This document shows, one piece after another, positions 41,046-64,000 of a DNA stretch of 64,000 nucleotides. A model generated the notes under the pieces. The model was given only the letters and a program-made list of their open reading frames with translations, was not told the DNA's origin and did not search any database. Both the position numbers and the translations under genes were made by a program. Origin of the DNA: an uncultured Boseongicola sp. Lineage in GTDB: Bacteria > Actinomycetota > Acidimicrobiia > Spongiisociales > ZC4RG35. Each line of letters starts with the position of its first letter. Position 1 is the first letter of the stretch. Location: positions 10,576 through 74,575 of the forward strand of contig CAXMMT010000078.1 of the NCBI GenBank assembly GCA_964194555.1, given 5' to 3'.

Positions 41046-41591
41046 TTACGTGTTTTGGTTCCCCAGATGGTTGGCCAGAAGACGTCTTCCTCGAAACACC
41101 CTGGACTTCATCGTTCCCACGGGCACGCCCAGCGTCTGTGCAGCGTCAGGGAGGGACATCCCCTCGATGTCGGAGAGGACGATGGCCGTTCGAAACTCCG
41201 GCGGAAGCGAAGCAAGAGCCTCCTGAATCTCTGGTCGAAGCGCCGCTGCCTCGACCGTCTCATGCGCGGTCGGGTCGGCGGGGTCGAGATGTTCGGGCAT
41301 CGGCTCCGCTGGGCGTCTCTTCTGCTTCCTCAGCTGGTCGTAGCATGTGTTGACGGCGATGCGATAGACCCATGTGCCAAAGGTGGACTTGCCCTCGAAT
41401 TGGTGAGCCTTTCGAAAGGCGGTGAGGAATGTCTCCTGAGTGGCGTCGAGAGCCTTCTCCCTGTTTCCCAGTATTCGGAGACACACGGAGAAGACTCGAT
41501 CCTCATGGGTCTTCATGATCTCGGTGAAGGCCTCGTGATCGCCGTCGGCCACCCGCGCCAGAAGTACGGCGTCCTCGGTGGCTTTGGTCAC
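41046..41591 (-). CDS. ECF (sigma-70 family) RNA polymerase sigma factor, SigM-like
   Basis: Region 2 (FGTWVYRIAVNTCYDQLRKQKRR) and region 4 (LPPEFRTAIVLSDIEGMSLPDAAQTLGVPVGTMKSRV). The start is taken as the GTG at 41591, which overlaps the upstream stop by GTGA. The track ORF extends to 41663. Confidence 0.75.
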   Translation of the reverse strand: MTKATEDAVLLARVADGDHEAFTEIMKTHEDRVFSVCLRILGNREKALDATQETFLTAFRKAHQFEGKSTFGTWVYRIAVNTCYDQLRKQKRRPAEPMPEHLDPADPTAHETVEAAALRPEIQEALASLPPEFRTAIVLSDIEGMSLPDAAQTLGVPVGTMKSRVFRGRRLLANHLGNQNT

Positions 41592-42877
41592 GGGAGGAAT
41601 CGTACTTCTGAAATCGACGCATAAAACGACCCGTCGGCATGAAGGGGCAGCTCGGTCAGCCACACCAGCCAGAAACCACCCTCACGTGGAGGTAGGTTGA
41701 CCAATGTCGCTCCGTGCGCGGCTTGAGCTCCTGCTATCCGTGTCCACTCATCGAGTTGTGGAAAGAAGACGTCGGACCAATAGATCTCGAATCGAGTACC
41801 GACACTCAATCCGATCAACTGTGTTTGGGCGGGGGTTCCTCTCAGTGTGAAGGTCACACCCACACCGGGCTTGATCCCCGCGAGGGGGTCCTGGTAGCTC
41901 TCGGTTCGCCAGAATGTCGAGATGTTACCGTCGACGAGGTTGCCCACCGAGTCGTCGTTCTCACCACCACCCCCAAAGGGATCGAAGGTGGCGGCGTTCC
42001 CGATGGCGACCTCACCGACCGGTGACGTGGTCGATGACGACAATTCGGTGGTCGGGACCGAGGGCTTGGTAGTTGTGACCGGGGTTGGGAGGAGCGGCTC
42101 ACCTCCACCGGCGACGAAACGTCCCAGGGCCACGAGTCCGATAGCCACGACCACCAGGGTTATCGCTGAGATGATCAGACGCCGCGAAGCAACCCGCGGC
42201 TCAGCTATCGGCGAGCGGGGGGTAGGAGCCGCAATCAGAGCTTCCTCGAGGGCCGAGGCGGTGAGGTCGCCCGATTGGCCCGAGCGAAGTATGCGATCGA
42301 TGCTCCTGGAGAGACCGTCGATTCGCTCGGATGGCGGTGGACCGCCAGGCGGTGACCCTGTGAGGGCTGATTCGAGTGCTGCGGCGAGGCCGCTCACGTC
42401 GCCGTTGGCACCTGTGCGAGGTTCTCTGCCGAACGCGCCGAGCTTCGCGGCATGCGCCGACGAATAGGAAATAGCGGAGAGATCGATGGCCCCATGGATG
42501 GCTTCGATCTCATGAAGCGCGGCCAATGCACCCGCTAGGCCGGCGGCGTTGGGCAAGAAGTCGGGAAGCTCGATTGGATGCGACGCCTCGACTCGGTCGG
42601 CCACCGTCGAACCCCCGGTCCATTCGGAGACCGAGTAGGCGCCACCGGCCACCTCGGCCACGGCAAAGACCCGGGCGAGATGTGAGTGGGCGACCTTGGC
42701 AGCGTCACCAACCTGATCGACGAACTGTTTTCGTCTCTTCGAAGAAGTCTCGGGCCCGAGACTTCGCAAAAGCACCGGTCGATCCAGGGACGTGTCTGTT
42801 GCCAGCCACTCCTCGATGTCACCATCGCGGCCTAGACGCATCTCGAGCTTGAATCTGTCGGGTATCGCGGCCGGCAT
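41588..42877 (-). CDS. Membrane protein with N-terminal degenerate protein-kinase-like domain, one TM helix, and C-terminal discoidin/F5-8-type-C-like extracellular domain (resembles the C-terminal half of mycobacterial MviN)
   Basis: Kinase-like N-terminus without catalytic motifs. TM LIISAITLVVVAIGLVAL. C-terminal NLVDGNISTFWRTESYQ motif. Confidence 0.5.
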   Translation of the reverse strand: MPAAIPDRFKLEMRLGRDGDIEEWLATDTSLDRPVLLRSLGPETSSKRRKQFVDQVGDAAKVAHSHLARVFAVAEVAGGAYSVSEWTGGSTVADRVEASHPIELPDFLPNAAGLAGALAALHEIEAIHGAIDLSAISYSSAHAAKLGAFGREPRTGANGDVSGLAAALESALTGSPPGGPPPSERIDGLSRSIDRILRSGQSGDLTASALEEALIAAPTPRSPIAEPRVASRRLIISAITLVVVAIGLVALGRFVAGGGEPLLPTPVTTTKPSVPTTELSSSTTSPVGEVAIGNAATFDPFGGGGENDDSVGNLVDGNISTFWRTESYQDPLAGIKPGVGVTFTLRGTPAQTQLIGLSVGTRFEIYWSDVFFPQLDEWTRIAGAQAAHGATLVNLPPREGGFWLVWLTELPLHADGSFYASISEVRFLP

Positions 42878-44670: not shown

Positions 44671-44957
44671 ATCGAATCTTGGACCCCGGATAGGACACTT
44701 TCAGAGCACTAGTGCTCTGGCCACGAACGTTGGCGATGTTGAGGGCGAGGCGGAGGCGTCTCTGACAAGGACGCAGGACGAAGGCGCACCGGCCCGTTCG
44801 TCGAGGACGAGGACACGGTCAGGGGCGTCACTGGACGTCCTGAACGCGGCAAACGTTTGTGGTCGGGGCACTAGTCAACTGCGGAGAGGTCATCCTTTCC
44901 CTCTCAACCTTGGTGCCGATCAGCCGATAACCACCGAGGACTCATCAGGGAAGGACT

Positions 44958-51621: not shown

Positions 51622-52041
51622 ATGAGACGCCACTACGACGACGGTTGTTTTGCGTGTGGCCGTGAGAATCCTCTCGGTCTTCATCTCGACGGCTTCTCTC
51701 TGGACGAGGGGTTGGTGAGCGCTCGTTTCGATCCTCGAGAGGAATACCGGGGTGCAGGCACTTCACTTCACGGAGGCGTGGCAGCCACAGCCCTCGACGA
51801 GATGCTGGTGTGGGCCGGCATCCTCGATCTGAGGGTGATGTCGGTCACCGCCAAGATGGAGCTCAAGTTCCGGCGGCCCGTTCAGGTGACCGACCCGATC
51901 CTGGTGCGAGCCAGAGTCGATGAGCGCCGGGGGAGAAGGCTGCTCACCTCAGGAGAGCTGTTGGTCGGCGATCGGGTCTGTGTCGAGGCGTCGGGACTCT
52001 ATCTGGTCACGTCGGATCTCGCGGAGTTGGGCATTCTCTGA
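51622..52041 (+). CDS. PaaI/4HBT hotdog-fold thioesterase
   Basis: HGGVAATALDE motif. The start is taken at MRRHY, after the uppS stop. Confidence 0.6.
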   Translation: MRRHYDDGCFACGRENPLGLHLDGFSLDEGLVSARFDPREEYRGAGTSLHGGVAATALDEMLVWAGILDLRVMSVTAKMELKFRRPVQVTDPILVRARVDERRGRRLLTSGELLVGDRVCVEASGLYLVTSDLAELGIL

Positions 52042-52063
52042 CCGGCTCGGGCTGTTAGAAGCT

Positions 52064-52750
52064 TTAGACGGTGACCATCCCTGGGTGGAGGTGGGCGACG
52101 TTGCCAAGTTGTCTCAGGGAGAAGGCCCATCCGGTGCTGATCCTGGTCATGGTCAATCGCGAAACACCGGTATGGGGCTGCCGGAACCGTTCCCACTCCC
52201 AAGGAACGGGTTCGAGGCCAAGCAGGTGGCCGAGAATCACCGCGTTGGTGCCGGCGTGGGCGATGATGATCACTCGCCGGTCGGGTTCGTCGACGGTCCA
52301 TAGGTGACGGTGGTCAGGATCCATCGGGTGAATCCCATGTGCAGCGAGTGTCTCGGCGAGTCCGCTGACGACGCGCTCGTGAAATGCTCTGAATGACTCG
52401 CCACCGGGAAGTCCTTCCCACATCTCCTCCATCGAGCGTGTGTTTGCTTCTTCGAAGTGCCGCTCGATCTCCTCAACAGGTGCTCCTTCCCACTCTGGAG
52501 GATTGTTGATTTCCTGCAACCAGTCGTACACCTCGTGCCCGTGGTCGAGATCGGCGGTGACCAACTCGGCCGTCTGCACCGCGCGAGTCATCGAGGAGAC
52601 CCAAAGCTCGTCGACATCCTCCAGTGATGCAAGGCGGTGGGCCACTCGGGCGGCCTGTGCCTGGCCCAACTCTGTGAGCCCGGGGTCGTTGCGAACCAGT
52701 CTGTCGGGAGCCCAGTCGGGCTGTCCGTGTCTAACCAGGAGGAGATCCAT
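52064..52750 (-). CDS. Histidine phosphatase family protein (phosphoglycerate mutase-like)
   Basis: LLLVRHGQ catalytic RHG motif and SSMTRAVQTAE. The start is MDLLLVRHG; the longer track ORF has a noise-like N-terminus. Confidence 0.7.
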   Translation of the reverse strand: MDLLLVRHGQPDWAPDRLVRNDPGLTELGQAQAARVAHRLASLEDVDELWVSSMTRAVQTAELVTADLDHGHEVYDWLQEINNPPEWEGAPVEEIERHFEEANTRSMEEMWEGLPGGESFRAFHERVVSGLAETLAAHGIHPMDPDHRHLWTVDEPDRRVIIIAHAGTNAVILGHLLGLEPVPWEWERFRQPHTGVSRLTMTRISTGWAFSLRQLGNVAHLHPGMVTV

Positions 52751-52807
52751 GCCTGGAAACCTAGTGGCCCGCAGCCGCTGGTCGTCTGTCGCCAATACGA
52801 TGGGGTC

Positions 52808-53353
52808 GTGACAAGAGACCTTCTGATCGAGCACCTGAAGACCCATGCGTTGAGAACAGATGGCCCGTTCACCCTGCGGTCCGGTGCTGTTTCGTCGTGG
52901 TATCTCGATGCCCGTCAGACCACCTTCGATGGTCGGGGAGCGGGGGTCGTCGGTCGGGCTGTCTATCAGGTTCTCGCCCCTGCTGTCGAGGCGGTCGGCG
53001 GAATGACCATGGGCGCAGACCCGATCGCCATAGCCACGGCGATGGTCGCAGCCGAAGACGGTCGTGATCTCAAGGCGTTCTCGATAAGGAAGACAGCCAA
53101 GGATCACGGCATCGGAGGAAGACTGGTGGGGCCGGTCGGCCCGGGTGCCCGTGTCGCCATCCTCGAAGACACGACAACCACCGGTAGTGCGGCGGTCGAG
53201 GCGGCGCGACATGCCATCGAGGAAGGTCTCGTTATCGTGCAGGCAATTGCACTTTTGGACCGATCAGAGGGACTGGCAGCCCGCAATTTTGCAGAGTTGG
53301 GCATCCCTCATGTGGCGCTGACGACGCCATCTGACCTGGGGGTGGGCACGTGA
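52808..53353 (+). CDS. pyrE: Orotate phosphoribosyltransferase
   Basis: PRPP-binding motif VAILEDTTTTGSAAVEA and FTLRSGAVSSWYLD. GTG start, divergent from the phosphatase gene. Confidence 0.75.
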   Translation: MTRDLLIEHLKTHALRTDGPFTLRSGAVSSWYLDARQTTFDGRGAGVVGRAVYQVLAPAVEAVGGMTMGADPIAIATAMVAAEDGRDLKAFSIRKTAKDHGIGGRLVGPVGPGARVAILEDTTTTGSAAVEAARHAIEEGLVIVQAIALLDRSEGLAARNFAELGIPHVALTTPSDLGVGT

Positions 53354-53946
53354 CCCTTGTCGTGAGGAGATCAGCTGTCAAGATGTGGCTGATGGCCATG
53401 GCGGGTATCCCGCTGCTGGTGATCTCGCTGGACGTTCTGACCAATCGACGCATCACCAACTGGCTCCGCGAGATCGTGTTCAGACCGGAGGACACCCAGA
53501 TTTATGAGCCTCGGGATGTCATCTGGGCGTGGGTAATGGCTTTGTTTGCCGGATTCATCGTTCTGTGGGGACTGAAAGAGCTGTTCCTTCCCACCAAGGT
53601 CCTCGAGTGTCGCGACGAAGGACTGGCGCTGAAGATCAGCGGTCCGTTCCGCCCGCCGTCGCTCCTTCTCTGGGACGACATCGATGATGTCACCGGTGGT
53701 GAGATCAACGATGAGGGTGACGTGGTTCACCTTCTTCTCATCACTGTGTTGAGTCGGGAGGGCCTGCCCGAAACCCCGTGGGGCGCGAGATGGGTCAAGG
53801 ACGACAAGTTGGGTGTGCTGGCAGAGGATTGGTCCGATGACCCATCAGACGTCGCCGACAAAATCATCGATTGCGCGGTGGCTGCGGCACGTAAGTCCAC
53901 GAGAGACCGAGCCGACCGGATGTCAGCGAGCATGGAGGACGAGTGA
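53350..53946 (+). CDS. Hypothetical membrane protein
   Basis: Two N-terminal TM helices. GTG start overlapping the pyrE stop. Confidence 0.4.
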
Positions 53947-54728
53947 GTCTCGTCGGCGCTCACACTCCTTCCGGGGATCCGCTCGCCGAGGCGGAGGCGA
54001 GAGGAGCTGATCTGGTTCAGATCTTCCTCTCCAATCCTCAATCATGGAAGAAACCGCTACCCAGAGATGACGCCGCCGCACTGCGGAGCTCCCCAATCCC
54101 CGTTTACGTCCACGCTCCGTATCTGATCAATGTCTGCGCCGACAACAACCGGGTTCGAATACCGAGCAGGAAGATTCTTCAGGACACATGTGACGCCGCC
54201 GCCGACATCGATGCCACCGCCGTTGTGGTTCATGGCGGTCATGTGACGGGCGACGGTCTCCAGGAGGAAGGGTTCATCCGATGGCGAAGGGCCTTGGAGT
54301 CCCTGGATACGGACATGTTGGTCCTGATCGAGAACACCGCCGGTGGGGAAAAGGCATTGGCACGTCGTGTCGAGTGGATGGCGCGCCTATGGGATGAGAT
54401 TGGCGGTTTTGGCGTTGGCCTGGTTCTGGACACCTGTCACTCGTGGGCCGGCGGCGAGCCGTTCGACGGTCTCGTCGAGCGAGTCCTGGAGGCCACGGGG
54501 CGTATCGACCTGGTGCACGCCAACGATTCCAAGGACCTTTTCGACTCGCGCCGGGACCGTCATCAGAATCTCGGCAAGGGGGAGATCCCTATCGAAGACC
54601 TGGCCCGGGAAATCGCCGTTGCCGGCGCCCCGATCGTGGTGGAGACACCGGGCGGGGTCGATTGCCAAGTCACCGACATCGAGTGGGTGCGTCAAGCATG
54701 TGCAGGCACGCGGGCCGGGCCCACTTAA
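53943..54728 (+). CDS. nfo: Deoxyribonuclease IV (AP endonuclease family 2)
   Basis: Xylose-isomerase-like TIM barrel with metal-ligand motifs ([27 protein letters not shown]). Confidence 0.75.
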
Positions 54729-54740
54729 CCGCGCACCCCG

Positions 54741-55193
54741 ATGACTTCGACCACGAAATGCACGGTGATTCTCCTGTCTCTCGTTCTGGCGGTATCCGCT
54801 TGTTCCGGGGCAACTCCAACCTCGGCTCTTCGCGAGGCTGGGATTGAAGTTGGTGGCGAGCCTCTGACTGTCTGGGTCGCCGACCAACCCATCGAGCGTC
54901 AGCAGGGCCTGATGGGGGTCGATCGGCTTCCTGGTGGCATAGACGGGATGCTCTTCGTCTACGAGTCGGAGCAGTCGACGACATTCTCCATGTTCAACAC
55001 GCCAATGACCCTCGACATCTGGTGGTTCGATTCGGATGGCGTCCTTGTCGGATCGGCGGAGATGGAGCCGTGCTTTGCCAAGCCATGCACGTTCTACCGG
55101 TCACCGGGGCCGATTGAATCGGTGCTGGAGACTCCTCAAGGCAGGTACTACTTTCGGCCCGGCATGGGTCTCTCGACTATCGACAGCAGCTGA
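54741..55193 (+). CDS. DUF192 family lipoprotein
   Basis: Lipobox LAVSAC and the DUF192 pattern (PLTVWVADQPIERQQGLMG...DGMLFVY...MFNTPMTLDIWWFDSDG). Confidence 0.6.
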   Translation: MTSTTKCTVILLSLVLAVSACSGATPTSALREAGIEVGGEPLTVWVADQPIERQQGLMGVDRLPGGIDGMLFVYESEQSTTFSMFNTPMTLDIWWFDSDGVLVGSAEMEPCFAKPCTFYRSPGPIESVLETPQGRYYFRPGMGLSTIDSS

Positions 55194-55303
55194 CGTCGTC
55201 TACCATTTAGCGCTGCACCGGCGTCTCGCGCCGCACGGTGCGACGAAACCCCTGCTCCATCATGTTGGTGGGGCCTTCCGACCGGATGTCCATAGGAGGT
55301 CAC

Positions 55304-55591
55304 ATGCGCGGTTATGAGATAATGACGATTCATCGGCCAGATCTGACCGAAGACGACGTCGAGGCCAAGATCACCGAACTCGAGTCGTATCTCTCAGACA
55401 GCGGTGCCACAGTCACCAAACGCGATATCTGGGGCAAACGCAGATTCGCCTACAAGATCGACCACATGTCAGAAGGCTTCTACTCGGTGCTTTCCGTTCA
55501 GGCCGAGCCCGGCGCCGTTGACTCGATCGACCGAATGCTCACCCTCACCGATGAGGTCGTGAGGCACAAGATCGTTCGTCCGGGCGAATAG
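55304..55591 (+). CDS. rpsF: 30S ribosomal protein S6
   Basis: MRGYEIMTIHRPDL...RRFAYKIDH. Start of the rpsF-ssb-rpsR-rplI operon. Confidence 0.85.
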   Translation: MRGYEIMTIHRPDLTEDDVEAKITELESYLSDSGATVTKRDIWGKRRFAYKIDHMSEGFYSVLSVQAEPGAVDSIDRMLTLTDEVVRHKIVRPGE

Positions 55592-55654
55592 CACTGGATT
55601 CCGTCCCACCGGCACGGCATAGTCGAGTGTGAGACAGGAATAGAGGAGAAACAG

Positions 55655-56107
55655 ATGTCAAATAACGTCACTCTCATCGGCAACCTCGTCGATGACCCAG
55701 AACTCCGGTTCACCCCGTCGGGTGTCGCCATGGCAAAGATCCGAATGGCCGTCAACCGTCGCTGGCGCGGTCAGGACGGCGAATGGCAGGAGAGCACCAG
55801 CTTTTTCACTGGGACCATCTGGCGCGAACAGGCCGAGCAGGTGGCCGAGTCGCTGCAGAAGGGGGCGAGGGTGATCGTGAGCGGTCGTCTCGAGCAGCGG
55901 AGCTGGGAGACCCAGGAAGGCGATAAGCGCTCCGTTGTGGAGATTCAGATCGACGAGATCGGGCCGTCACTGCGCTGGGCCACTGCCACTGTCAATAAGA
56001 CCCAGCGTCAGGGGGGCGACTGGTCAAACGACAAGAAGTCCGACAGCACGCCGGCGACGACGCCCGTGGCCCGTGATGACTTTGGGCCCGATGAAGCACC
56101 TTTCTAG
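55655..56107 (+). CDS. ssb: Single-stranded DNA-binding protein
   Basis: OB-fold N-terminus ([19 protein letters not shown]) and acidic C-terminal tail [10 protein letters not shown]. Confidence 0.9.
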
Positions 56108-56118
56108 GAGACTATTCA

Positions 56119-56391
56119 ATGCCACGTAAGAACAAGAGAGCCCCGCGGGCAACCAGAGGGGGTCGACGCGAGACCTATCGTAGGGGCAAACCGAAGCCTT
56201 GCGCCGTCTGTGCTCAGGGTGGTGCTCTCGATTGGAAGGACGCGTCGTTTCTGCGCAAGTTCGTCTCGGATCGAGGAAAGATCCGCAGTCGCCGCGTGTC
56301 GGGTCTGTGCCCGCGTGATCAGCGCAGAGTGGCCACGGCCGTCAAGAACGCTCGCGAGATGGCACTTCTCCCCTATGTAGGCACTCGATGA
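56119..56391 (+). CDS. rpsR: 30S ribosomal protein S18
   Basis: CAVC...DWKD...[20 protein letters not shown]. Confidence 0.9.
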
Positions 56392-56834
56392 AGCTGATTC
56401 TCACGTCTGACGTGGTGGATCTGGGCAAGCGCGGCGATGTTGTCGACGTTGCCGACGGATTCGCCCGCAACTATCTGCTGCCACGGAAGTACGCCATCAA
56501 GGCAAACGATGGCGCCCTTGCGGCGGCTGAGAACATCCGCGAGACCCGTCTTGCAACCGAGCGCAAGGCGAAGGATCTCGCAGAGGCGATAGCCACCCAG
56601 CTCGTGGGTAGCCGTGTGGTTCTCGCGGCCCAGGCGGGCGACGAGGGCCAGCTCTACGGGTCGGTTTCGGTCGCCGATGTCGTTGAGGGCATCAAGCGTT
56701 TCACCGGTATCGAGTTGGAGAAGAGTCAGGTTGAGATGGACGAGTCGATCAAGGCGATCGGTCTCCACGAGATCCAGATAAAGGTCCACACCGAGGTGGA
56801 GTTCCCTCTCACCCTCGACATCATTCCGGCCTGA
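56388..56834 (+). CDS. rplI: 50S ribosomal protein L9
   Basis: [32 protein letters not shown]. Confidence 0.9.
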
Positions 56835-57050
56835 TCCACTCGATCTAGTCACAAGTTTCGCGGTTGACTGTCAATCTCTTCCACCGCGAAAAACAATCAT
56901 CGCTTTGAGTTGGGGTGAGGTGTGCGGTGGTCTATGTTCGGTCCACTTCCCCCGCTGAAGGCGGTTTCCACTTCCCCGTCCGGCGGGGTCTTGCGCGTCG
57001 AGACCCAAATCTGTCGGTGGCATGTGGCATCTTGTTTGGAGAGGACGTAA

Positions 57051-58403
57051 ATGACTGGAATGACCGAACAAAGCGAGTTGCGGCCTGGTTACCGCAATCC
57101 TCCCCACTCGCGTGAGGCAGAGGAGTCGATCATCGGGGCTTTGCTCCTCTCTGTGGACGCGGTCAATGACGTCATGGATCACATTCATCCAGAGGACTTC
57201 TACGTGCCGGCGCACCAGGCCATCTTCGAGGGCATGCGAGAGCTCTTCGACTCCAATCAGGCGATCGATGCCGTCACCGTCTCCGAGGTCTTGCGACGGC
57301 ATGGCGAGCTGGAGAAGGTTGGCGGGGTTCAATACCTGGCGCGTCTGGTTGACATCGTTCCCTCAACCTCCAACATCTCCTATTACGCGGGAATAGTCGA
57401 GGAGCACGCCAAACGACGCGAGTTGATCCGTGCCGGAGCCTCGGTCACCGATGTGGCTTTCAACCTCGACGAGGAGATCGCCATGGTGCTCGACCGGGCA
57501 GAGCAGGCTGTGCTCGGTGTCGCCGAGAGACGCTCTTCGCAGACTCTTGTCGAAGTGGGACCGATGCTGAGCGATGTCCTCGAGCAGATCGAGTTGATGG
57601 AGCAAAGAGGAAGTGAGCTCACCGGGCTGGCCACCGGCTACATGGATCTCGACCGGAAACTGGCTGGTCTTCAACCGGCCAACCTCATTGTCGTGGCATC
57701 GAGGCCGGGCATGGGGAAGAGCTCGTTGGCCCTGGGTATCGCGATCAATGTGGCCGCTCAGGACGAGTCCGTGGCGATTTTTTCCCTGGAAATGTCGAAG
57801 GAGGAACTGGTCCAGAGGATCCTGTCTTCTGTGGGGAAGGTCGACTCGATGAAACTCCGAGCGGGTCAATTGGGCCCGCTCTGGCAAAGGGTGGTCGATG
57901 CCGCAGGGAGAATGTACAAAGCGCCTATCTACATCGATGACTCCCCTGTGGTCACGGTCACCGACATCCGGGCCAAGTGCCGTCGGCTAAAGCGAAGGAA
58001 GGGACTCTCCCTTGTCGTGGTCGACTATTTGCAATTGATGGAGTCGTCCAAGCGAGAAAATCGCCAACAAGAGATTTCGGAGATCACCAGGAATCTCAAG
58101 AACCTCGCCAGAGAGCTCGGAGTTCCGATCATCGCGTTGTCTCAGTTGAACCGGTCACTGGAGCAGAGGGAGGATAAGCGCCCACGGCTTGCCGACCTCC
58201 GGGAGTCCGGGGCGATCGAGCAGGATGCCGACGTGGTGATGTTCATCTACCGCCACGAGTACTACCACCCCGAGGATCAAGAGAAGAGGGGAATAGCCGA
58301 GGTGATCGTCGCCAAGCACCGCGCCGGTTCGACGGGTCCGGTGGAGATGACGTTTCAACCCGAGTTCACTCGGTTCGCCAACCTGGGTCGTGACGTCAGC
58401 TGA
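57051..58403 (+). CDS. dnaB: Replicative DNA helicase DnaB (no intein)
   Basis: N-terminal domain PHSREAEESIIGALL, Walker A SRPGMGKSSLAL, and a RecA-like fold. The 450-aa length excludes an intein. Confidence 0.9.
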   Translation: MTGMTEQSELRPGYRNPPHSREAEESIIGALLLSVDAVNDVMDHIHPEDFYVPAHQAIFEGMRELFDSNQAIDAVTVSEVLRRHGELEKVGGVQYLARLVDIVPSTSNISYYAGIVEEHAKRRELIRAGASVTDVAFNLDEEIAMVLDRAEQAVLGVAERRSSQTLVEVGPMLSDVLEQIELMEQRGSELTGLATGYMDLDRKLAGLQPANLIVVASRPGMGKSSLALGIAINVAAQDESVAIFSLEMSKEELVQRILSSVGKVDSMKLRAGQLGPLWQRVVDAAGRMYKAPIYIDDSPVVTVTDIRAKCRRLKRRKGLSLVVVDYLQLMESSKRENRQQEISEITRNLKNLARELGVPIIALSQLNRSLEQREDKRPRLADLRESGAIEQDADVVMFIYRHEYYHPEDQEKRGIAEVIVAKHRAGSTGPVEMTFQPEFTRFANLGRDVS

Positions 58404-58417
58404 CTTCCTTCTTGACA

Positions 58418-58458
58418 TGACTAACACCCTTAGTTAGAATAACTAAGATCATTAGTCA
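58418..58458. promoter_or_regulatory. Nested palindromic operator plus promoter upstream of the SRPBCC-TetR operon
   Basis: TGACTAA-N5-CTTAGTTA-GAA-TAACTAAG-ATCA-TTAGTCA, with TTGACA at 58412. Confidence 0.45.
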
Positions 58459-58479
58459 CAACTATCGAGGAGGATCACA

Positions 58480-58998
58480 ATGACTTCTTCTGATCGTCGA
58501 TCAGATTCGTTTCTTCGGGCGTCGCTTTTGGGCAGTGCCAGAGGTGTTCACCCAAGGCGTCTCGTTACCGAGATAGAGATCGACGCGAGTTCCGACGCCG
58601 TGTGGGATGTGCTGACCGACCTGTCCGAGTATCAAGACTGGAACCCGTTCGTTGTGGCCGGATCGGGTGAGGTGGCCGTTGGTGAGCAAATCGAGATCCG
58701 CATGAGGCAGTCGGAAGGCAGCGACACGACGTTCAAGCCGATTGTGACCGAGGCGACTTCACCGAGCACCTTCGAGTGGTTGGGGCGCCTCGCCATACCC
58801 GGGTTGTTTTCGGGTCGCCATCGATTTGATCTCCTGTCCAGTGAGACCGGGACGCGAGTTGTCCACTCAGAGGAATTCAGCGGTGTGCTGGTCCCGCTGC
58901 TGTGGAATTCCCTCGATCGCAAGACAAGAGGAGGGTTTGAGGCCATGAATGTGGCAATGAAGGAGCGGGTTGAGGCGAGGACGCCTCCGATCGTCTGA
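58480..58998 (+). CDS. SRPBCC (START / polyketide cyclase-like) family protein
   Basis: SRPBCC-like beta-grip sequence with a WDVLTDLSEYQDWNPF element. Confidence 0.6.
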   Translation: MTSSDRRSDSFLRASLLGSARGVHPRRLVTEIEIDASSDAVWDVLTDLSEYQDWNPFVVAGSGEVAVGEQIEIRMRQSEGSDTTFKPIVTEATSPSTFEWLGRLAIPGLFSGRHRFDLLSSETGTRVVHSEEFSGVLVPLLWNSLDRKTRGGFEAMNVAMKERVEARTPPIV

Positions 58999-59579
58999 TG
59001 GGTCGAAAAGCGGGGATCACGCTCGAAGACGTTGTGGAGACGGCAGCGACCATTGCTGATAGTCATGGGCTCGAAGCCGCCACACTCACCGCAGTCGCCG
59101 GTGAGCTTGGCATCAAGACGCCTTCTCTCTACAACCACGTCAAAGGGATCTCCGGGATGAGAAGACTCCTGGCCGTTCACGGCTCGCAGCTGCTGCTGAG
59201 AACGTTCGAAGAGGCAATTGGAGACCTAGAAGGAGCTGAGGCTCTTCGATCCATAGCCCAAGCCGATCGGCAGTTCGCCCGCGATCACCGTGGGCTCTAC
59301 GACTCCTTCCTACCGGCTCCCAAACCCGACGAAGACGCTGAACTGTATGAAGCGATGGCCGAACCGGTGTTTCTGGTTGCACACGTGCTGTTGGACATGG
59401 GGATTCCCCAGAGTGAGGCGATTCATCTGATCCGAGCCCTGCGGGCGCTGTTGCATGGATTTCTCGACCTCGAAGCGAAGGAAGGCTTCGGAATGCCGAT
59501 AGGGATCGATGCGAGTTTCGATGCTTCTGTCGACCTGATCATCGCAGGTATCGAGACAGCCGCGGCAAACTCCAAGTAG
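58998..59579 (+). CDS. TetR/AcrR family transcriptional regulator
   Basis: N-terminal HTH ITLEDVVETAATIADSHGLEAATLTAVAGELGIKTPSLYNHV. Confidence 0.75.
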   Translation: MGRKAGITLEDVVETAATIADSHGLEAATLTAVAGELGIKTPSLYNHVKGISGMRRLLAVHGSQLLLRTFEEAIGDLEGAEALRSIAQADRQFARDHRGLYDSFLPAPKPDEDAELYEAMAEPVFLVAHVLLDMGIPQSEAIHLIRALRALLHGFLDLEAKEGFGMPIGIDASFDASVDLIIAGIETAAANSK

Positions 59580-59583
59580 ACGA

Positions 59584-59605
59584 GCGGCAACCAGAAGGTT
59601 GCCGC
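59584..59605. terminator. Stem-loop between the convergent TetR and dcd genes
   Basis: GCGGCAACC-AGAA-GGTTGCCGC, a perfect 9-bp stem. There is no U-tract on either strand. Confidence 0.4.
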
Positions 59606-59753
59606 TGGAGGGGTTCGTCGCTTGCCCGTGGAGCAAAAAGCTCCCGAGGGGGACTCGTTACGGGCAGGGACTCACTCAGTCCTCAGTTTGCCCACTCGGA
59701 GTGGTGAATGTGGCCCTGATGGCACACATTGAGAATATGCACAGACGCGCTAG

Positions 59754-60329
59754 TTACCTTTCCGATGAGTCGAAGTCTCGATGGGATCGACTCGCAGTCG
59801 GGCCCGATTGGCCCTGATACTTGGACCCGAGCTCCGGGGATCCATAGGGGAACTCCGCCGCGGTGGTCATCTGATAGAAGCTGATCTGCCCGATCTTCAT
59901 GCCGTGGTAGATGGCGATGGGCAGCGTGGCGACGTTGGAGAGCTCCAGAGTGATGTGGCCTTCGAATCCGGGGTCGATGAATCCGGCCGTGGAGTGGATG
60001 AGGAGCCCAAGCCGGCCCAGGGAGGATTTGCCTTCGAGTCTTGCAACGACGTCGTTGCCCAGCTTGATCCGCTCAAGAGTCGATCCGAGCACGAACTCGC
60101 CTGGATGCAACATGAAAGGCTCGTCCTCGCCCATTTGGACGAGTTGGGTCAGGTCATCCTGTGGCGAACGGGGATCGATTTTCGAGTAGCGGTGATTCAC
60201 AAAGACCCTGAACCCGTTTCCAACCCGGAGGTCGACCGAGGATGGCTGTACGAAGGCCGGCTCGTAGGGGTCGATGACTATCGAACCGCTCTCGATGGCG
60301 TCGCGGATGGATCGGTCGGAGAAGATCAT
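59754..60329 (-). CDS. dcd: dCTP deaminase
   Basis: Dcd trimer signature. Start at [12 protein letters not shown]. Confidence 0.85.
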
Positions 60330-60472
60330 CGGACGGGCATGGTAGGTGTCACCCACAAGAACGGCCATCGCCGCCACCAGAAGCGAACCTGAGGAAACCG
60401 CCCCCATATACGGGCGTAACTACCTCAGGTTCGGGTGACGGCTGGTTCGGGTGACGGCTGGAGCGGTCGACG

Positions 60473-60546
60473 TGGAGCGGGTGACGGGAATCGGACCCGC
60501 GTCCCGAGCTTGGGAAGCTCGTGTTCTACCATTGAACTACACCCGC
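60473..60546 (-). tRNA. tRNA-Gly (anticodon CCC)
   Basis: The reverse complement GCGGGTGTAGTTCAATGGTAGAACACGAGCTTCCCAAGCTCGGGACGCGGGTCCGATTCCCGTCACCCGCTCCA folds as a cloverleaf with anticodon loop CUUCCCAAG and encoded CCA. Confidence 0.85.
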
Positions 60547-60675
60547 TGAGAGCCCAGAATAGCCCACACTCCACTCTCGGCTATCTGCTCGACCGTACGA
60601 CTGTCGATGGTGGTTGTTCGTCTTGGGTCGGCTAAGTTCTCCGTTGCTCCCAATTCTTCGAGAAACGAGAAACTC

Positions 60676-61428
60676 ATGAAAACCGATCGTCCTACCTGGC
60701 TACTGGTCACCGTGTTGCTGGCCTTGTCGTTGGCCGCTTGCGGCGTTACTTTGCCTGTCGAGCCGACAGAAGTTCCCCCTGGGACTGAGGCTCCAGAAAC
60801 GACGGATGCCCCTGCGACCACCGAGGCCCCTCCGACGAGCGAGGCTCCCGCTGAGGACGAGAGTGAAACCAACTGGCCGTTGCTGATCGGACTGTTTCTC
60901 CTGGCCTTCTTGCTGATAGGCATGATCATGGGCCGGTCGCGGAAGAAGGCTGCCGTTCCGGTTCCTGTCTCCGCAGAGAGGACATTCAAGGAATATGTCC
61001 GTGATGGGTACAGCGAGGCTCGTTGGCTGCTCGACGGGCTTACCGACGAGTTGGCGATATGGCGAGGAAACGCCCTCCACGACCACCGAACCGAAGCGGA
61101 CGACTCAGCAGGAACGGCGATGCTGGCGACATGGTCTCAGCTCGATGACCGAATGAATCAGGCCAAGGATGAGCTTTACCGGGCCGAGGCGGCTGCACCA
61201 GACCAGAACACTGCTCAGACGATACGTGCCACGATCTCAGCCCTCGGGGAGACACGGACAGCGGTAGACGCGCGTGCCGAAGCCAGACTCAACACCAGGC
61301 AGATCGAGTCAGCCGATCAGACGGCTTTGGCCGAGGCCCGCGAACGGGAGCGACTTTCCTCGGCGAATCTGGCTGAAAAGCGCCAGAAGCTCAACGACGC
61401 GTTGCTCGGTCTCAGCGCCGTCGTCTAA
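60676..61428 (+). CDS. Hypothetical membrane-anchored protein (signal/lipobox, Pro/Thr/Glu-rich linker, TM, coiled-coil)
   Basis: Start at MKTDRPTWLLVTVLLALSLAACG. TM segment WPLLIGLFLLAFLLIGMIMG. Confidence 0.5.
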   Translation: MKTDRPTWLLVTVLLALSLAACGVTLPVEPTEVPPGTEAPETTDAPATTEAPPTSEAPAEDESETNWPLLIGLFLLAFLLIGMIMGRSRKKAAVPVPVSAERTFKEYVRDGYSEARWLLDGLTDELAIWRGNALHDHRTEADDSAGTAMLATWSQLDDRMNQAKDELYRAEAAAPDQNTAQTIRATISALGETRTAVDARAEARLNTRQIESADQTALAEARERERLSSANLAEKRQKLNDALLGLSAVV

Positions 61429-61480
61429 TCACTCCATGGAAGGCTCGAAAGCCGACTGGCGCGATCGGCCTGGCTAAGTG

Positions 61481-61720
61481 TTAGGTGAAGAGAGTTACCG
61501 CGCCCCAGACACTCAGAAGCAGTCCGACTGCTGACAGAAACACAACTCTCCCTGATCGATATTGGGCGTGTTCCACCCCTTTGGGGGCCTTGCCTTGACG
61601 GTGCTTCCACCAGGCCAGCCCGTTTCCGATCAGCAGGGCCAGACCGAGACCGAGGATCAGCTCCGGCAAAAGGTTCTCGAAGTCGAGCAGGTCTCCCACG
61701 GTTGGCACGGTAACGCCGAA
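61481..61720 (-). CDS. Possible small two-TM membrane protein (only the C-terminal ~80 codons of the track ORF)
   Basis: Hydrophobic helices LILGLGLALLIGNGLAWW and VVFLSAVGLLLSVWGAV. The rest of track ORF 61481..62182 is antisense to thrB and was discarded. Confidence 0.3.
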   Translation of the reverse strand, partial: FGVTVPTVGDLLDFENLLPELILGLGLALLIGNGLAWWKHRQGKAPKGVEHAQYRSGRVVFLSAVGLLLSVWGAVTLFT

Positions 61721-61732
61721 TAGGCTGATTGC

Positions 61733-62581
61733 GTGAGCGAAATGGCTGTCGCCTCGGCACCGGCGACCACAGCGAACCTGGGCCCCGCGTTTGATTGCAT
61801 CGGACTGGCCCTCAGTCCCCGATGCACAGTGCGTGCCCGTGAGGCCGACGAGTGGTCGGTGGAGCATGTGGGGGAGTTTCGACCCGGCCCGACGGACGGC
61901 GACGGTGTGCTTGCTGCCGCACGCCAGGTCGTTGGTGAGAGGCCGCTGTCGATAGTGGTCGACACAGAGGTCCCCATAGGCAAGGGACTGGGCTCCTCGG
62001 CGGCGGCCTATGTCGCCGGGACAGCGGCGGCTCTTCGCGCAGTCGGCGAGGACGCCTCTCCAGATCGCGTGTTTCGCTTGGCGAAGGAGTTGGAGGGACA
62101 CGACGATCAGGTGGGTGCAGCGGTTTATGGCGGTTTGGTCCTCATCCCGGCCGAGGGGCTCCCGATGAGACTCCCCTTCCATCCATCGTTGAGGCCGGTA
62201 GTTGCCGTGCCACCGACGCGCTTGCCCACATACAAGGCCCGGTCCATCCTTGCTGACGAGATACCCAGGGATGTTGTGATACGAAGTTTGGCAAGAGTCT
62301 CCTCGCTCACGGTCGGACTCATCACCGGAGACCCCGGCATGCTCTCAGCCGCCCACGGCGATGAGATTCACGAGGCCCCGAGGGCTCACCTGAGTCCCGA
62401 AGTTGGTCACCTGATGGACGTGGCACGACGGGCAGGCGCTCTTCACGTGGCTAGATCGGGAGCCGGACCTTCGGTCGTAGCGATCACCACGTTCGATACG
62501 GCCGATCGCGTGGCGGATGCCTTCCGCAGCGAGGGGGTCGGAGTCATCAACGAGTCCATGGACACCACCGGCTTGGTTTGA
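61733..62581 (+). CDS. thrB: Homoserine kinase
   Basis: GHMP kinase motifs ATTANLGPAFDCIGLAL and PIGKGLGSSAA. Confidence 0.8.
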   Translation: MSEMAVASAPATTANLGPAFDCIGLALSPRCTVRAREADEWSVEHVGEFRPGPTDGDGVLAAARQVVGERPLSIVVDTEVPIGKGLGSSAAAYVAGTAAALRAVGEDASPDRVFRLAKELEGHDDQVGAAVYGGLVLIPAEGLPMRLPFHPSLRPVVAVPPTRLPTYKARSILADEIPRDVVIRSLARVSSLTVGLITGDPGMLSAAHGDEIHEAPRAHLSPEVGHLMDVARRAGALHVARSGAGPSVVAITTFDTADRVADAFRSEGVGVINESMDTTGLV

Positions 62582-62847
62582 GGTTTGGGTACCGGCCCCC
62601 CCAACCTCCGCCCATCGCTGCGGACGACCTACCAGGATTGGGAAGAGGGGCCCCAGCCGGATATGGGCGGCTGGTTTGGACGATTCCGGGTTGGCCGTAC
62701 CCGGTTTCGTCCGTCGCAACCCCCGTTGCATATCTCCTTTACGCCCGGCAAAGCTCGTTCGTCATGGATTTTCTATGACGATGGGCTGTTTGTGGGTGTA
62801 ATAGGGTTATGCAAGGAGTTTTCGCCGCAAGGATTGGTCGATAGCTG

Positions 62848-63390
62848 GTGAGCGACGCTCGTTTTTCGGAGGTCTACAACGCTTTTCACTGGCATGTCTA
62901 CGCGTACTGCTTCCATCGTACGAGTCGTGAGACGGTCGATGACGCTGTGGCGGACACGTTTCTCACCGCCTGGCGAAAAATCGAGAGAATTCCTGACGGT
63001 GCCGACGCTCTGCCATAGCTTTACAGCGTCGCCTATCGGGTCGTGGGGCGTCAGTGGAGAGGTGTTTCGCGTCGCAAGAATCTCGCTGAGAAGCTGGCCG
63101 GTGCAGGACTGGAGTATGTGACTCCACCGGAGACGTTTGTTGTTTCCAGCCACGAGAACGACCTGGTGGTCAGAGCAGTTTCCAAACTCAAGAGCAGCGA
63201 CCGAGAGATCCTCCGACTTGCCGTCTGGGAAGATCTGGATCGGCCACAAGTCGCCATGGTGCTCGGCATTAGCACCGATGCAGTCAGACAGAGGCTGTAT
63301 GAGGCACGAAAACGTCTCGTTTCCGAATATGAGCGTTTAGAGCGTAAACGAACCCCATCCCCCGCTCCTGAGAAAGGAGGTACATTGTGA
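62848..63390 (+). pseudogene. ECF sigma-70 family sigma factor interrupted by an in-frame amber codon (TAG at 63016-63018) at the conserved Trp of the ...P-W-LYxxA motif
   Basis: One reading frame from GTG 62848 gives region 2 (FSEVYNAFHWHVYAYCFHR...DTFLTAWRKIERI...ALP*LYSVAYRVVGRQ) and region 4 (EILRLAVWEDLDRPQVAMVLGISTDAVRQRLYEARKRL). The stop splits it into two track ORFs. A TGG to TAG change is a single transition. Confidence 0.6.
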
Positions 63391-64000
63391 AGACCGAAGA
63401 ACGCCTGATGGCGATGTACGCCGACGCCAATCCGATAGAGCTTGTCGACTTGCTTGACATGGTTGGCGTTGACCACGCCGCGTACCTCGCAACCCTTGCC
63501 CAAAGGAGCAGCGACATGACGGAGCTAGACACCAAGTCAACAGAATCAAAGAAACCTCGGCGACCGATAGTGTCTTGGCTGATAGCAGCCGGAGTGGCCA
63601 CCGTCATCGGGGTGGCGATCATCATTGCCGCTCAGAACACTGACGAAGCACCGGTCGTCGATCAGCCAACAACCACAGCGGGACCGGTCACCATCGAGAC
63701 CGTGCTCGATTTGAGCGAATCGCCTATCCGCGGGACTTTCGAGGTCACAGAAGGCGCTGATGTCCTTGGGTGTTCCAGCGGAACCTTGGTGTCGATGAAC
63801 TCGGAGACCTTCGGGAAGGATGACAATGTCATGACATGTGAGTCCGGCTCGAATACGGGGACTTTCACCATCATCTACAACCGTGAGCTGTTCGACTGGA
63901 GTGTTCTGGAAAGCTCCGACGACTTCGCCGGTCTGCAAGGTGAAGGGCGCTTCTCTTTTGTCTTCACTAGCGCAAGTAGAATCGTGGAGACGTTCACAGG
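63387..64000 (+). CDS. Putative anti-sigma factor / membrane protein, start-stop overlapped with the sigma gene; 3' end outside the window
   Basis: The GTG start overlaps the sigma TGA (GTGA). Single TM helix IVSWLIAAGVATVIGVAIIIAA. The frame is open to the window end with high GC3. Confidence 0.5.
   Translation, partial: MKTEERLMAMYADANPIELVDLLDMVGVDHAAYLATLAQRSSDMTELDTKSTESKKPRRPIVSWLIAAGVATVIGVAIIIAAQNTDEAPVVDQPTTTAGPVTIETVLDLSESPIRGTFEVTEGADVLGCSSGTLVSMNSETFGKDDNVMTCESGSNTGTFTIIYNRELFDWSVLESSDDFAGLQGEGRFSFVFTSASRIVETFT

Follow-up and report, generated by a model that had tools for sequence, protein, structure and literature searches.

Operons that encode ECF sigma factors are usually autoregulated. 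The closest relatives of solved structure to the sigma factor described here, CnrH-CnrY (4cxf), SigL (6dv9) and RpoE-RseA (1or7), are distant ones, found with E values of 4e-9 to 3e-6 and scores of 30-40 bits. The locus shares with them the two-domain layout of sigma-2 and sigma-4 and a small membrane partner encoded directly downstream of the sigma factor gene, though its partner, unlike theirs, bears no detectable similarity to the anti-sigma domains of the CnrH, SigL and RpoE systems.

Mycobacterium leprae has sigma-factor pseudogenes. In Bacillus anthracis, the regulator gene plcR is a pseudogene by virtue of a nonsense mutation (PMC3171730). Like plcR and the M. leprae genes, the sigma factor gene analysed here is a regulator gene with a single stop and with intact orthologues in close relatives; those cases, however, belong to well-studied niche shifts or genome reduction, whereas the present one is a single locus of one MAG with its neighbouring genes intact. 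A further parallel is offered by rpoS of Escherichia coli, which has TAG at codon 33 in K-12 and for which both natural and selected null alleles are known (PMC2700278). As with rpoS (PMC2700278), an alternative sigma factor appears to have been lost by a single-base nonsense change that is polymorphic between close relatives. In contrast to this locus, rpoS encodes a group-2 sigma factor with demonstrated selective trade-offs and with known suppression or re-initiation, while the gene described here encodes an ECF (group 4) sigma factor of an uncultured Acidimicrobiia bacterium and is known from sequence alone.

Upstream of the sigma gene lies a short, hairpin-rich, RNA-like element tied to an ECF sigma factor, in which respect it resembles the sigma-E-dependent MicA, RybB and MicL, and one of its hairpins has an invariant CCCC loop as in C-rich-loop sRNAs such as 6C. 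Unlike MicA, RybB, MicL and 6C, the element matches no Rfam family and is a candidate RNA only. Most deserving of further study are a partner protein of no known anti-sigma family and a conserved, covariation-supported element that is absent from Rfam.

An ECF sigma factor gene with one amber codon

In the window, by which the whole stretch of 64,000 nucleotides that was analysed is meant, the sigma frame runs over 180 codons from the GTG at 62848 to the TGA at 63388-63390, with a single in-frame stop and no frameshift (Table 1). The initial annotation, made from the letters of the window, had described a canonical ECF sigma factor with regions 2 and 4 intact and an amber codon as its only defect, and both statements hold. 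With the tryptophan restored, the product passes the cutoffs of PF04542 Sigma70_r2 (31.9 bits vs 24), of PF08281 Sigma70_r4_2, the region 4.2 HTH (38.3 bits vs 25.7), and of TIGR02937 sigma70-ECF (65.8 bits vs 42.9, residues 6-159), its sigma-4 also passing that of PF04545 (24.2 bits vs 24.1); none of the ECF subfamily models in NCBIfam and Pfam reached its cutoff on this restored product. The sigma-2 domain, with regions 2.1-2.4, is fully present in the DNA, while translation stops inside it. Sigma-2, sigma-4 and a small size without regions 1.1 and 3, the traits of ECF (group 4) sigma factors, are thus all found, but since the frame is interrupted by the TAG at codon 57 the locus is classed as an ECF sigma pseudogene rather than as a working member of the group.

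Table 1. Features of the sigma/partner module and its surroundings in the window
Feature	Position	Strand	Basis or remark
Homoserine kinase gene (GHMP kinase)	61733..62581	+	conserved upstream neighbour; selection control
Structured element upstream of sigma gene	62674..62808 (flanks 62653-62847)	+	covariance model R1
P1a	62678-83/62707-12	+	helix of upstream element
P1b	62686-91/62699-704	+	helix of upstream element
P2, GCAAC-CCCC-GTTGC	62716-29	+	helix, invariant CCCC loop
P3/P4, long hairpin	62735-62806	+	upstream element
TGAC-N14-GGGYGTA pair, back to back	62740-62764, 62776-62800	-, +	arms of P3/P4
ECF sigma factor gene, one amber inside	62848..63390	+	translation; Pfam/NCBIfam with Trp restored; orthologues
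N-terminal ORF left over, 56 aa	62848..63018	+	first part of sigma-2 only
TAG in place of the Trp57 TGG codon	63016..63018	+	G-to-A at 63017; L001/L003 DNA alignment has TGG
C-terminal residual ORF, internal GTG, 115 aa	63043..63390	+	sigma-2 end, linker, sigma-4
Window-specific G-to-T (sigma W180L; partner ATG to ATT)	63386..63386	+	L001/L065 comparison
Partner gene (GTGA overlap with sigma stop)	63387..64000	+	open for 204 codons to window end

The amber codon stands in the context GCT CTG CCA TAG CTT TAC AGC. It had been taken for a TGG-to-TAG transition at the conserved region-2 tryptophan, and the comparison bears this out, the closest orthologues having TGG at this position and Trp57 being found in 14/14 aligned orthologues and in 118/118 members of the family (the set of those with at least 170 aa), where it aligns with the conserved W-L-(F/Y) sigma-2 helix of the CnrH, SigL and RpoE structures. 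That a stop should fall on a conserved tryptophan is unremarkable, since 10 of the 18 transitions able to make a stop in the sigma gene lie in its five TGG codons. Nonsense changes account for about 4.2% of all possible single-base changes in the window's copy.

The stop leaves two shorter reading frames. The exact 56-aa product of the first is known from one record, which forms a single-member cluster and comes from one NCBI contig that also encodes the window's exact homoserine kinase; a homologue search with this fragment matched itself alone. The second opens at a GTG nine codons past the amber codon, before which no Shine-Dalgarno sequence was found, so that it is probably unexpressed, and its exact 115-aa product was absent from the protein collection searched. 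The window also holds a second, unrelated ECF sigma gene on the minus strand (41070-41681), which is about 25% identical to the first, intact, and has strong r2 and r4_2 matches.

Orthologues and gene order

Full-length orthologues of 180 aa were recovered by protein search at 90% identity (P0001) and at 81-82% identity (P0002-P0004), and together with the copy in L065 these span 77-92% identity overall. Beyond them lies a large family of sigma factors at 40-58% identity from Acidimicrobiia MAGs and metagenomes. The syntenic orthologues are 92-94% identical to the window in DNA and are intact with TGG at the amber position, the nearest relative being the syntenic L065 with 94.3% DNA identity in the sigma gene. 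The contigs that encode P0001 share with the window the order of ribosomal proteins S6, S18 and L9, SSB, DnaB, dCTP deaminase, homoserine kinase, sigma factor and a 213-aa partner, at 88-97% DNA identity to window positions 51884-64000, and the order homoserine kinase, leader, sigma, partner around the module itself is common to the orthologues. The L001 sigma sequence, identical or with one change, occurs in at least 10 contigs from different samples. A comparison of orthologous loci, proposed in the initial annotation as a check, thus gave TGG and an intact sigma gene throughout, with neither the same stop nor a conserved split arrangement in any of them. The amber allele itself is known from one assembly only and was not found in scans of GTDB-representative genomes and JGI metagenomes. 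What this comparison exposes is a well-delimited and widely duplicated sigma/partner module of the Acidimicrobiia.

Two further differences in gene order were seen along the syntenic stretch. Between dnaB and the dCTP deaminase gene the window has a segment of 1.1 kb (58411-59503) that is missing from the syntenic L001 and carries genes for an SRPBCC/polyketide-cyclase-like protein (58456-58998) and a TetR-family regulator (58974-59579). Following the stop of the homoserine kinase gene, about 62 nt (62583-62645) are present in the window and in L065 and lacking in L001; since L065 keeps the stretch, it was deleted in the L001 lineage rather than inserted in the window.

A conserved element upstream of the sigma gene

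The 265 bp upstream of the sigma gene had been described as non-coding. This is right as regards protein, as a 62-aa ORF, annotated as a gene in L001, was rejected as coding on the grounds that it ends early in L027 and that its 21 N-terminal codons are conserved at the nucleotide level without synonymous variation. The stretch is not featureless, however, and contains a conserved element. Compared with relatives that share just 79% identity in the sigma gene, window positions 62645-62847 are better conserved than the coding sequence. Each of 30 fetched loci has a single copy of the 14-mer GCAACCCCCGTTGC (62716-62729), invariably on the strand of the sigma gene and about 130 nt before codon 1, with no further copy elsewhere. 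The upstream region folds with -101 kcal/mol (z = -6.2 vs shuffled sequence).

The element is about 135 nt long. R1, a covariance model built from 16 sequences, scores 126.7 bits at 62674-62808 of the window and has, in each of 25 loci, one strong match (41-127 bits), which lies before the sigma gene, with no strong match elsewhere in 515 kb. When 23 sequences were aligned by fitting them to R1, 92.7% of cells were paired, as against 32-42% in slid controls, 15 of 30 pairs changed on both sides, and the covariation score was 0.281 compared with 0.064 or less in controls; the raw MAFFT alignment gave 72.9% paired vs about 40% in controls. A search of Rfam found no match at E <= 1 in 61500-64000 and, at E <= 10 in 62640-62860, chance eukaryotic matches only, while a search of the literature for an ECF-associated RNA motif returned nothing relevant. 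Scans of 62400-64000 for sigma-70 promoters and intrinsic terminators found none. In L065 (1165-1182) and L067, an extra hairpin of about 18 nt is inserted between P1 and P2, the two differing in sequence and both being self-complementary, a pattern typical of the variable stems of structured RNAs.

Each arm of P3/P4 is one of two TGAC-N14-GGGYGTA motifs placed back to back, and the 64-kb window has no other match to this motif. The paralogous modules L006 and L007 have kept only the plus-strand (right-hand) motif, which is also the only arm left in L026, there in diverged form; most family members have the same spacing of 17 nt from xAC to CAT/CGT, counted manually. Judged by these features, the pair may represent candidate divergent ECF-type promoters.

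Two readings of the element may be entertained. It may be a structured leader RNA on the sigma strand of about 135-190 nt, as might be expected from the excess of G-U over A-C pairs in P3/P4 (33 vs 8, p = 1e-4, uncorrected for relatedness) and from the greater stability of the 3' domain on the plus strand. It may also be a pair of divergent promoters, one of which drives a hairpin-rich small RNA of about 100 nt with P2 and P1. With regard to such a divergently transcribed RNA, the GCAAC-NNNN-GTTGC hairpin is invariant, and the 5' domain (P1, P2) slightly favours the minus strand, with A-C 13 vs G-U 5 and a lower folding energy (p = 0.03).

Nature of the amber codon

Three explanations had been put forward for the amber codon: a recent inactivating mutation, a sequencing error and a programmed event. 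The first is the one best favoured by the evidence, the orthologues being intact with TGG and TAG being a normal terminator in this DNA. It is accordingly probable that the codon arose by a real, lineage-specific G-to-A nonsense mutation at 63017 and that the gene is a young pseudogene or loss-of-function allele. Reassignment of TAG was ruled out, as TAG closes long conserved ORFs of the window, for example ssb at 56105-56107, which ends at the same point in L001; the partner gene of L001 also terminates at TAG. Phase variation or slippage was rejected because there is no repeat or homopolymer at the amber site.

Other disrupted copies of the sigma gene exist in the family. The 633-bp ENA contig L004 and the intact JGI module L026 are identical over 633 nt but for one base, and this one difference, a C-to-A change, turns Tyr63 from TAC (L026:10187-10189) into TAA (L004:179-181), six codons past Trp57. 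A second copy in L039 (10-420, minus strand) shows older decay, with a frameshift and TAG at Trp70, and an older decayed copy in L054 (1833-2075) has TGA at Trp42 and loses similarity beyond about residue 87. One account of the locus would join the amber codon and the TAA of L004, as segregating knock-outs, to a regulatory element peculiar to this ECF sigma family of the Acidimicrobiia, be it leader RNA or divergent promoters; we hold it tentatively, at slightly less than even chances. Natural knock-out alleles of this kind would be ready-made controls for studying the module and its element.

A stronger claim would be that loss is adaptive and recurrent, nonsense alleles of the sigma family segregating because loss is advantageous under some conditions, as in rpoS. 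This is unlikely. The one-base stop of L004 close to Trp57, in a gene where about 4.4% of random single-base changes are nonsense (L004/L026), and the two older decayed copies (L054 and the second copy of L039) count in its favour, and amber and premature-stop alleles of rpoS provide a documented precedent (PMC2700278). However, the disrupted copies number four among roughly 50 loci, the family has several paralogues and was sampled through metagenome assemblies, and ordinary turnover of such multi-copy genes would fit the observations equally well; the C-to-A change of L004 could be an assembly error, as it lies on a short contig.

It is also improbable, though the idea has some observations to recommend it, that the A at 63017 is an artefact, namely an error of sequencing, polishing or consensus calling or a minority variant that entered the MAG consensus, and that the gene is intact in the organism. 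The amber allele comes from one contig only, a single base separates it from the codon of the orthologues, the leader and the partner still look constrained or open, and the similar one-base stop on L004, a 633-bp contig of low-quality type, indicates that such calls do occur. Against this, the 16 other genes of the 12 kb that the window has in common with L001 are all free of stops and frameshifts in the window's copy, a sign of a clean assembly. The amber site is CCATGG in the orthologues, and since the window keeps 6/8 of the CCATGG sites that L001 has in the region common to both, a base-calling error linked to this motif is unlikely and the artefact reading loses further ground. The changes R23H, A174P and W180L in the same copy would, moreover, go unexplained by one base error.

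Low-level near-cognate readthrough of UAG occurs in bacteria. Such readthrough, and a GTG nine codons past the stop (63043) that opens a 115-aa ORF with sigma-4, lend the remaining idea, a programmed event by amber readthrough (suppressor tRNA, pyrrolysine or a leaky context) or by re-initiation of a two-piece gene at that GTG, what plausibility it has, but it is highly improbable given that the orthologues have no stop or split arrangement, that TAG is an ordinary terminator in this DNA, that ARAGORN found no suppressor tRNA-CUA in the 64-kb window, where tRNA-Gly(CCC) at 60473-60546 is the only tRNA, that the GTG has no Shine-Dalgarno sequence, that a split would cut the sigma-2 fold, that the site has no repeat, and that the second stop in the family, in L004, is TAA at another codon.

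Consequences and age of the lesion

If the amber codon is a real nonsense mutation, as we prefer to read it, the G-to-A change at 63017 would have turned the TGG of the invariant Trp57 into an amber codon, and the sigma polypeptide would end after 56 residues, losing the conserved WLY helix and everything beyond it, including sigma-4. Lacking the WLY helix and sigma-4, such a product would be no functional sigma factor, and from what is generally known of ECF systems it could not form holoenzyme. Ribosomes would stop 370 nt before the start of the partner gene, so that translational coupling would presumably be lost, and if the operon is autoregulated the whole sigma/partner module would be silenced. 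The partner gene, still open, would then be a relic on its way out rather than a functioning orphan anti-sigma factor. The proposal of a pseudogene leaving an orphan anti-sigma factor is thus supported in its first half by the intact TGG orthologues, while in its second half the partner would rather be a silent relic. A silent relic agrees with the near-neutral replacement/silent ratio of 2.8 for the partner gene in the window lineage. For annotation, the practical warning is to merge the 56-aa and 115-aa ORFs into a single pseudogene entry and not to list the partner as an active orphan anti-sigma factor. In itself, the amber codon adds one case to the regulators lost by point mutation and is of little import.

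The age of the lesion was approached by polarising changes among the window, L065 and L001. In the sigma gene, replacement and silent changes number 13/7 plus the stop in the window lineage, 3/6 in that of L065 and 7/7 in that of L001; in the partner gene, the corresponding counts are 31/11, 24/14 and 10/6, and in the homoserine kinase gene, which served as control, 4/24, 7/37 and 2/12. The replacement excess runs in the direction expected if constraint on the sigma/partner operon had been relaxed in the window lineage, and is suggestive of this, although neither the contrast for sigma (13/7 vs 10/13 in the sisters, p = 0.22) nor that for sigma and partner together (44/18 vs 44/33, p = 0.11) is significant. 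Among the replacements in the window sigma are R23H, at a position that is Arg in 118/118 family members, and A174P, for which the family has no other example; W180L is present as well. The intact sigma of L001 carries rare residues too (Y10C, G51R). In 193 nt of the upstream element, lineage-specific changes number 6, 8 and 4 in the window lineage and its two sisters, the window being no more diverged than these. As the element is not accelerated, the lesion would be recent on the scale of the lineage divergence of roughly 6%, and any inactivation would likewise be recent given that the replacement excess is not significant, that L001 has odd residues as well, that the element evolves no faster and that the partner gene is open.

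The downstream partner gene

The overlap of the partner start with the sigma stop (GTGA), noted in the initial annotation, is real, the GTG lying at 63387-63389. The partner gene had also been called intact. It is indeed open for 204 of about 213 codons, but it runs off the window before its stop; the orthologues are 209-213 aa long, and the ORF ends about 9 codons short of the expected stop. In L001 and L065 the partner starts with an ATG one codon earlier (ATGGTGA), and the loss of this ATG through the window-specific change at 63386 leaves the GTG at 63387 as the start. Natural GTG starts of partner genes occur in other modules, for example L026, and an overlap of the form GTGA or ATGGTGA is shared by the window, L001, L065, L026 and L006. 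All modules examined have a homologous partner N-terminus downstream of the sigma gene. A compensated frameshift, considered for the variable C-terminal segment of the partner, was rejected, the DNA alignment having a 3-nt deletion and substitutions only.

The partner consists of an N-terminal cytoplasmic part of 63 aa, a transmembrane segment at residues 64-82 and a beta-barrel ectodomain, and so is the single-TM protein it had been taken for; by hydropathy analysis it has 5 K/R before the segment and 0 after it, in keeping with the positive-inside rule and an N-in orientation. The N-terminal ~45 aa are conserved, whereas paralogous modules swap the outer domain (213 aa vs 286-296 aa). AlphaFold predicts an eight-stranded beta structure for the C-terminal domain, with pLDDT above 90 at residues 100-204, and gives the N-terminus a pLDDT below 50. 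Foldseek returned weak matches of the ectodomain to dirigent/DUF3224-like folds (E 0.009-0.09), and one member of the partner family has a weak Pfam match to DUF3224.

The suggestion that the partner is the cognate anti-sigma factor agrees with its position and topology. No match to a known anti-sigma family came from sequence searches against Pfam, NCBIfam and PDB chains or from a Foldseek comparison with PDB structures. The best family below cutoff was CU044_5270 (18.5 bits vs 100), and RskA_C was matched with E = 0.28 in 1/18 partner family members; similarity to CnrY, RseA, RskA/RslA, zf-HC2, RsdA and class I/II ASD went undetected. Of the features by which an anti-sigma factor is recognised, gene position and orientation and topology are present in the partner, and homology to a known domain is absent. 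On the strength of its position and topology, the partner is therefore named here a putative anti-sigma factor.

Many proteins of 130-160 aa (P0134-P0240) match the C-terminal beta-barrel domain of the partner only, which means that the domain also exists as a stand-alone protein family; this family has no Pfam annotation and is probably secreted. Beyond the partner gene, contigs with an identical sigma/partner module follow two different downstream continuations (L001:11150-11662 and L060-L062 vs L055-L058 and L064), which part about 0-500 nt past the partner gene, where several contigs end. A 128-nt piece of this region matches window positions 44748-44875 at 91%, which suggests that a repeat or a strain breakpoint may adjoin the sigma/partner module.
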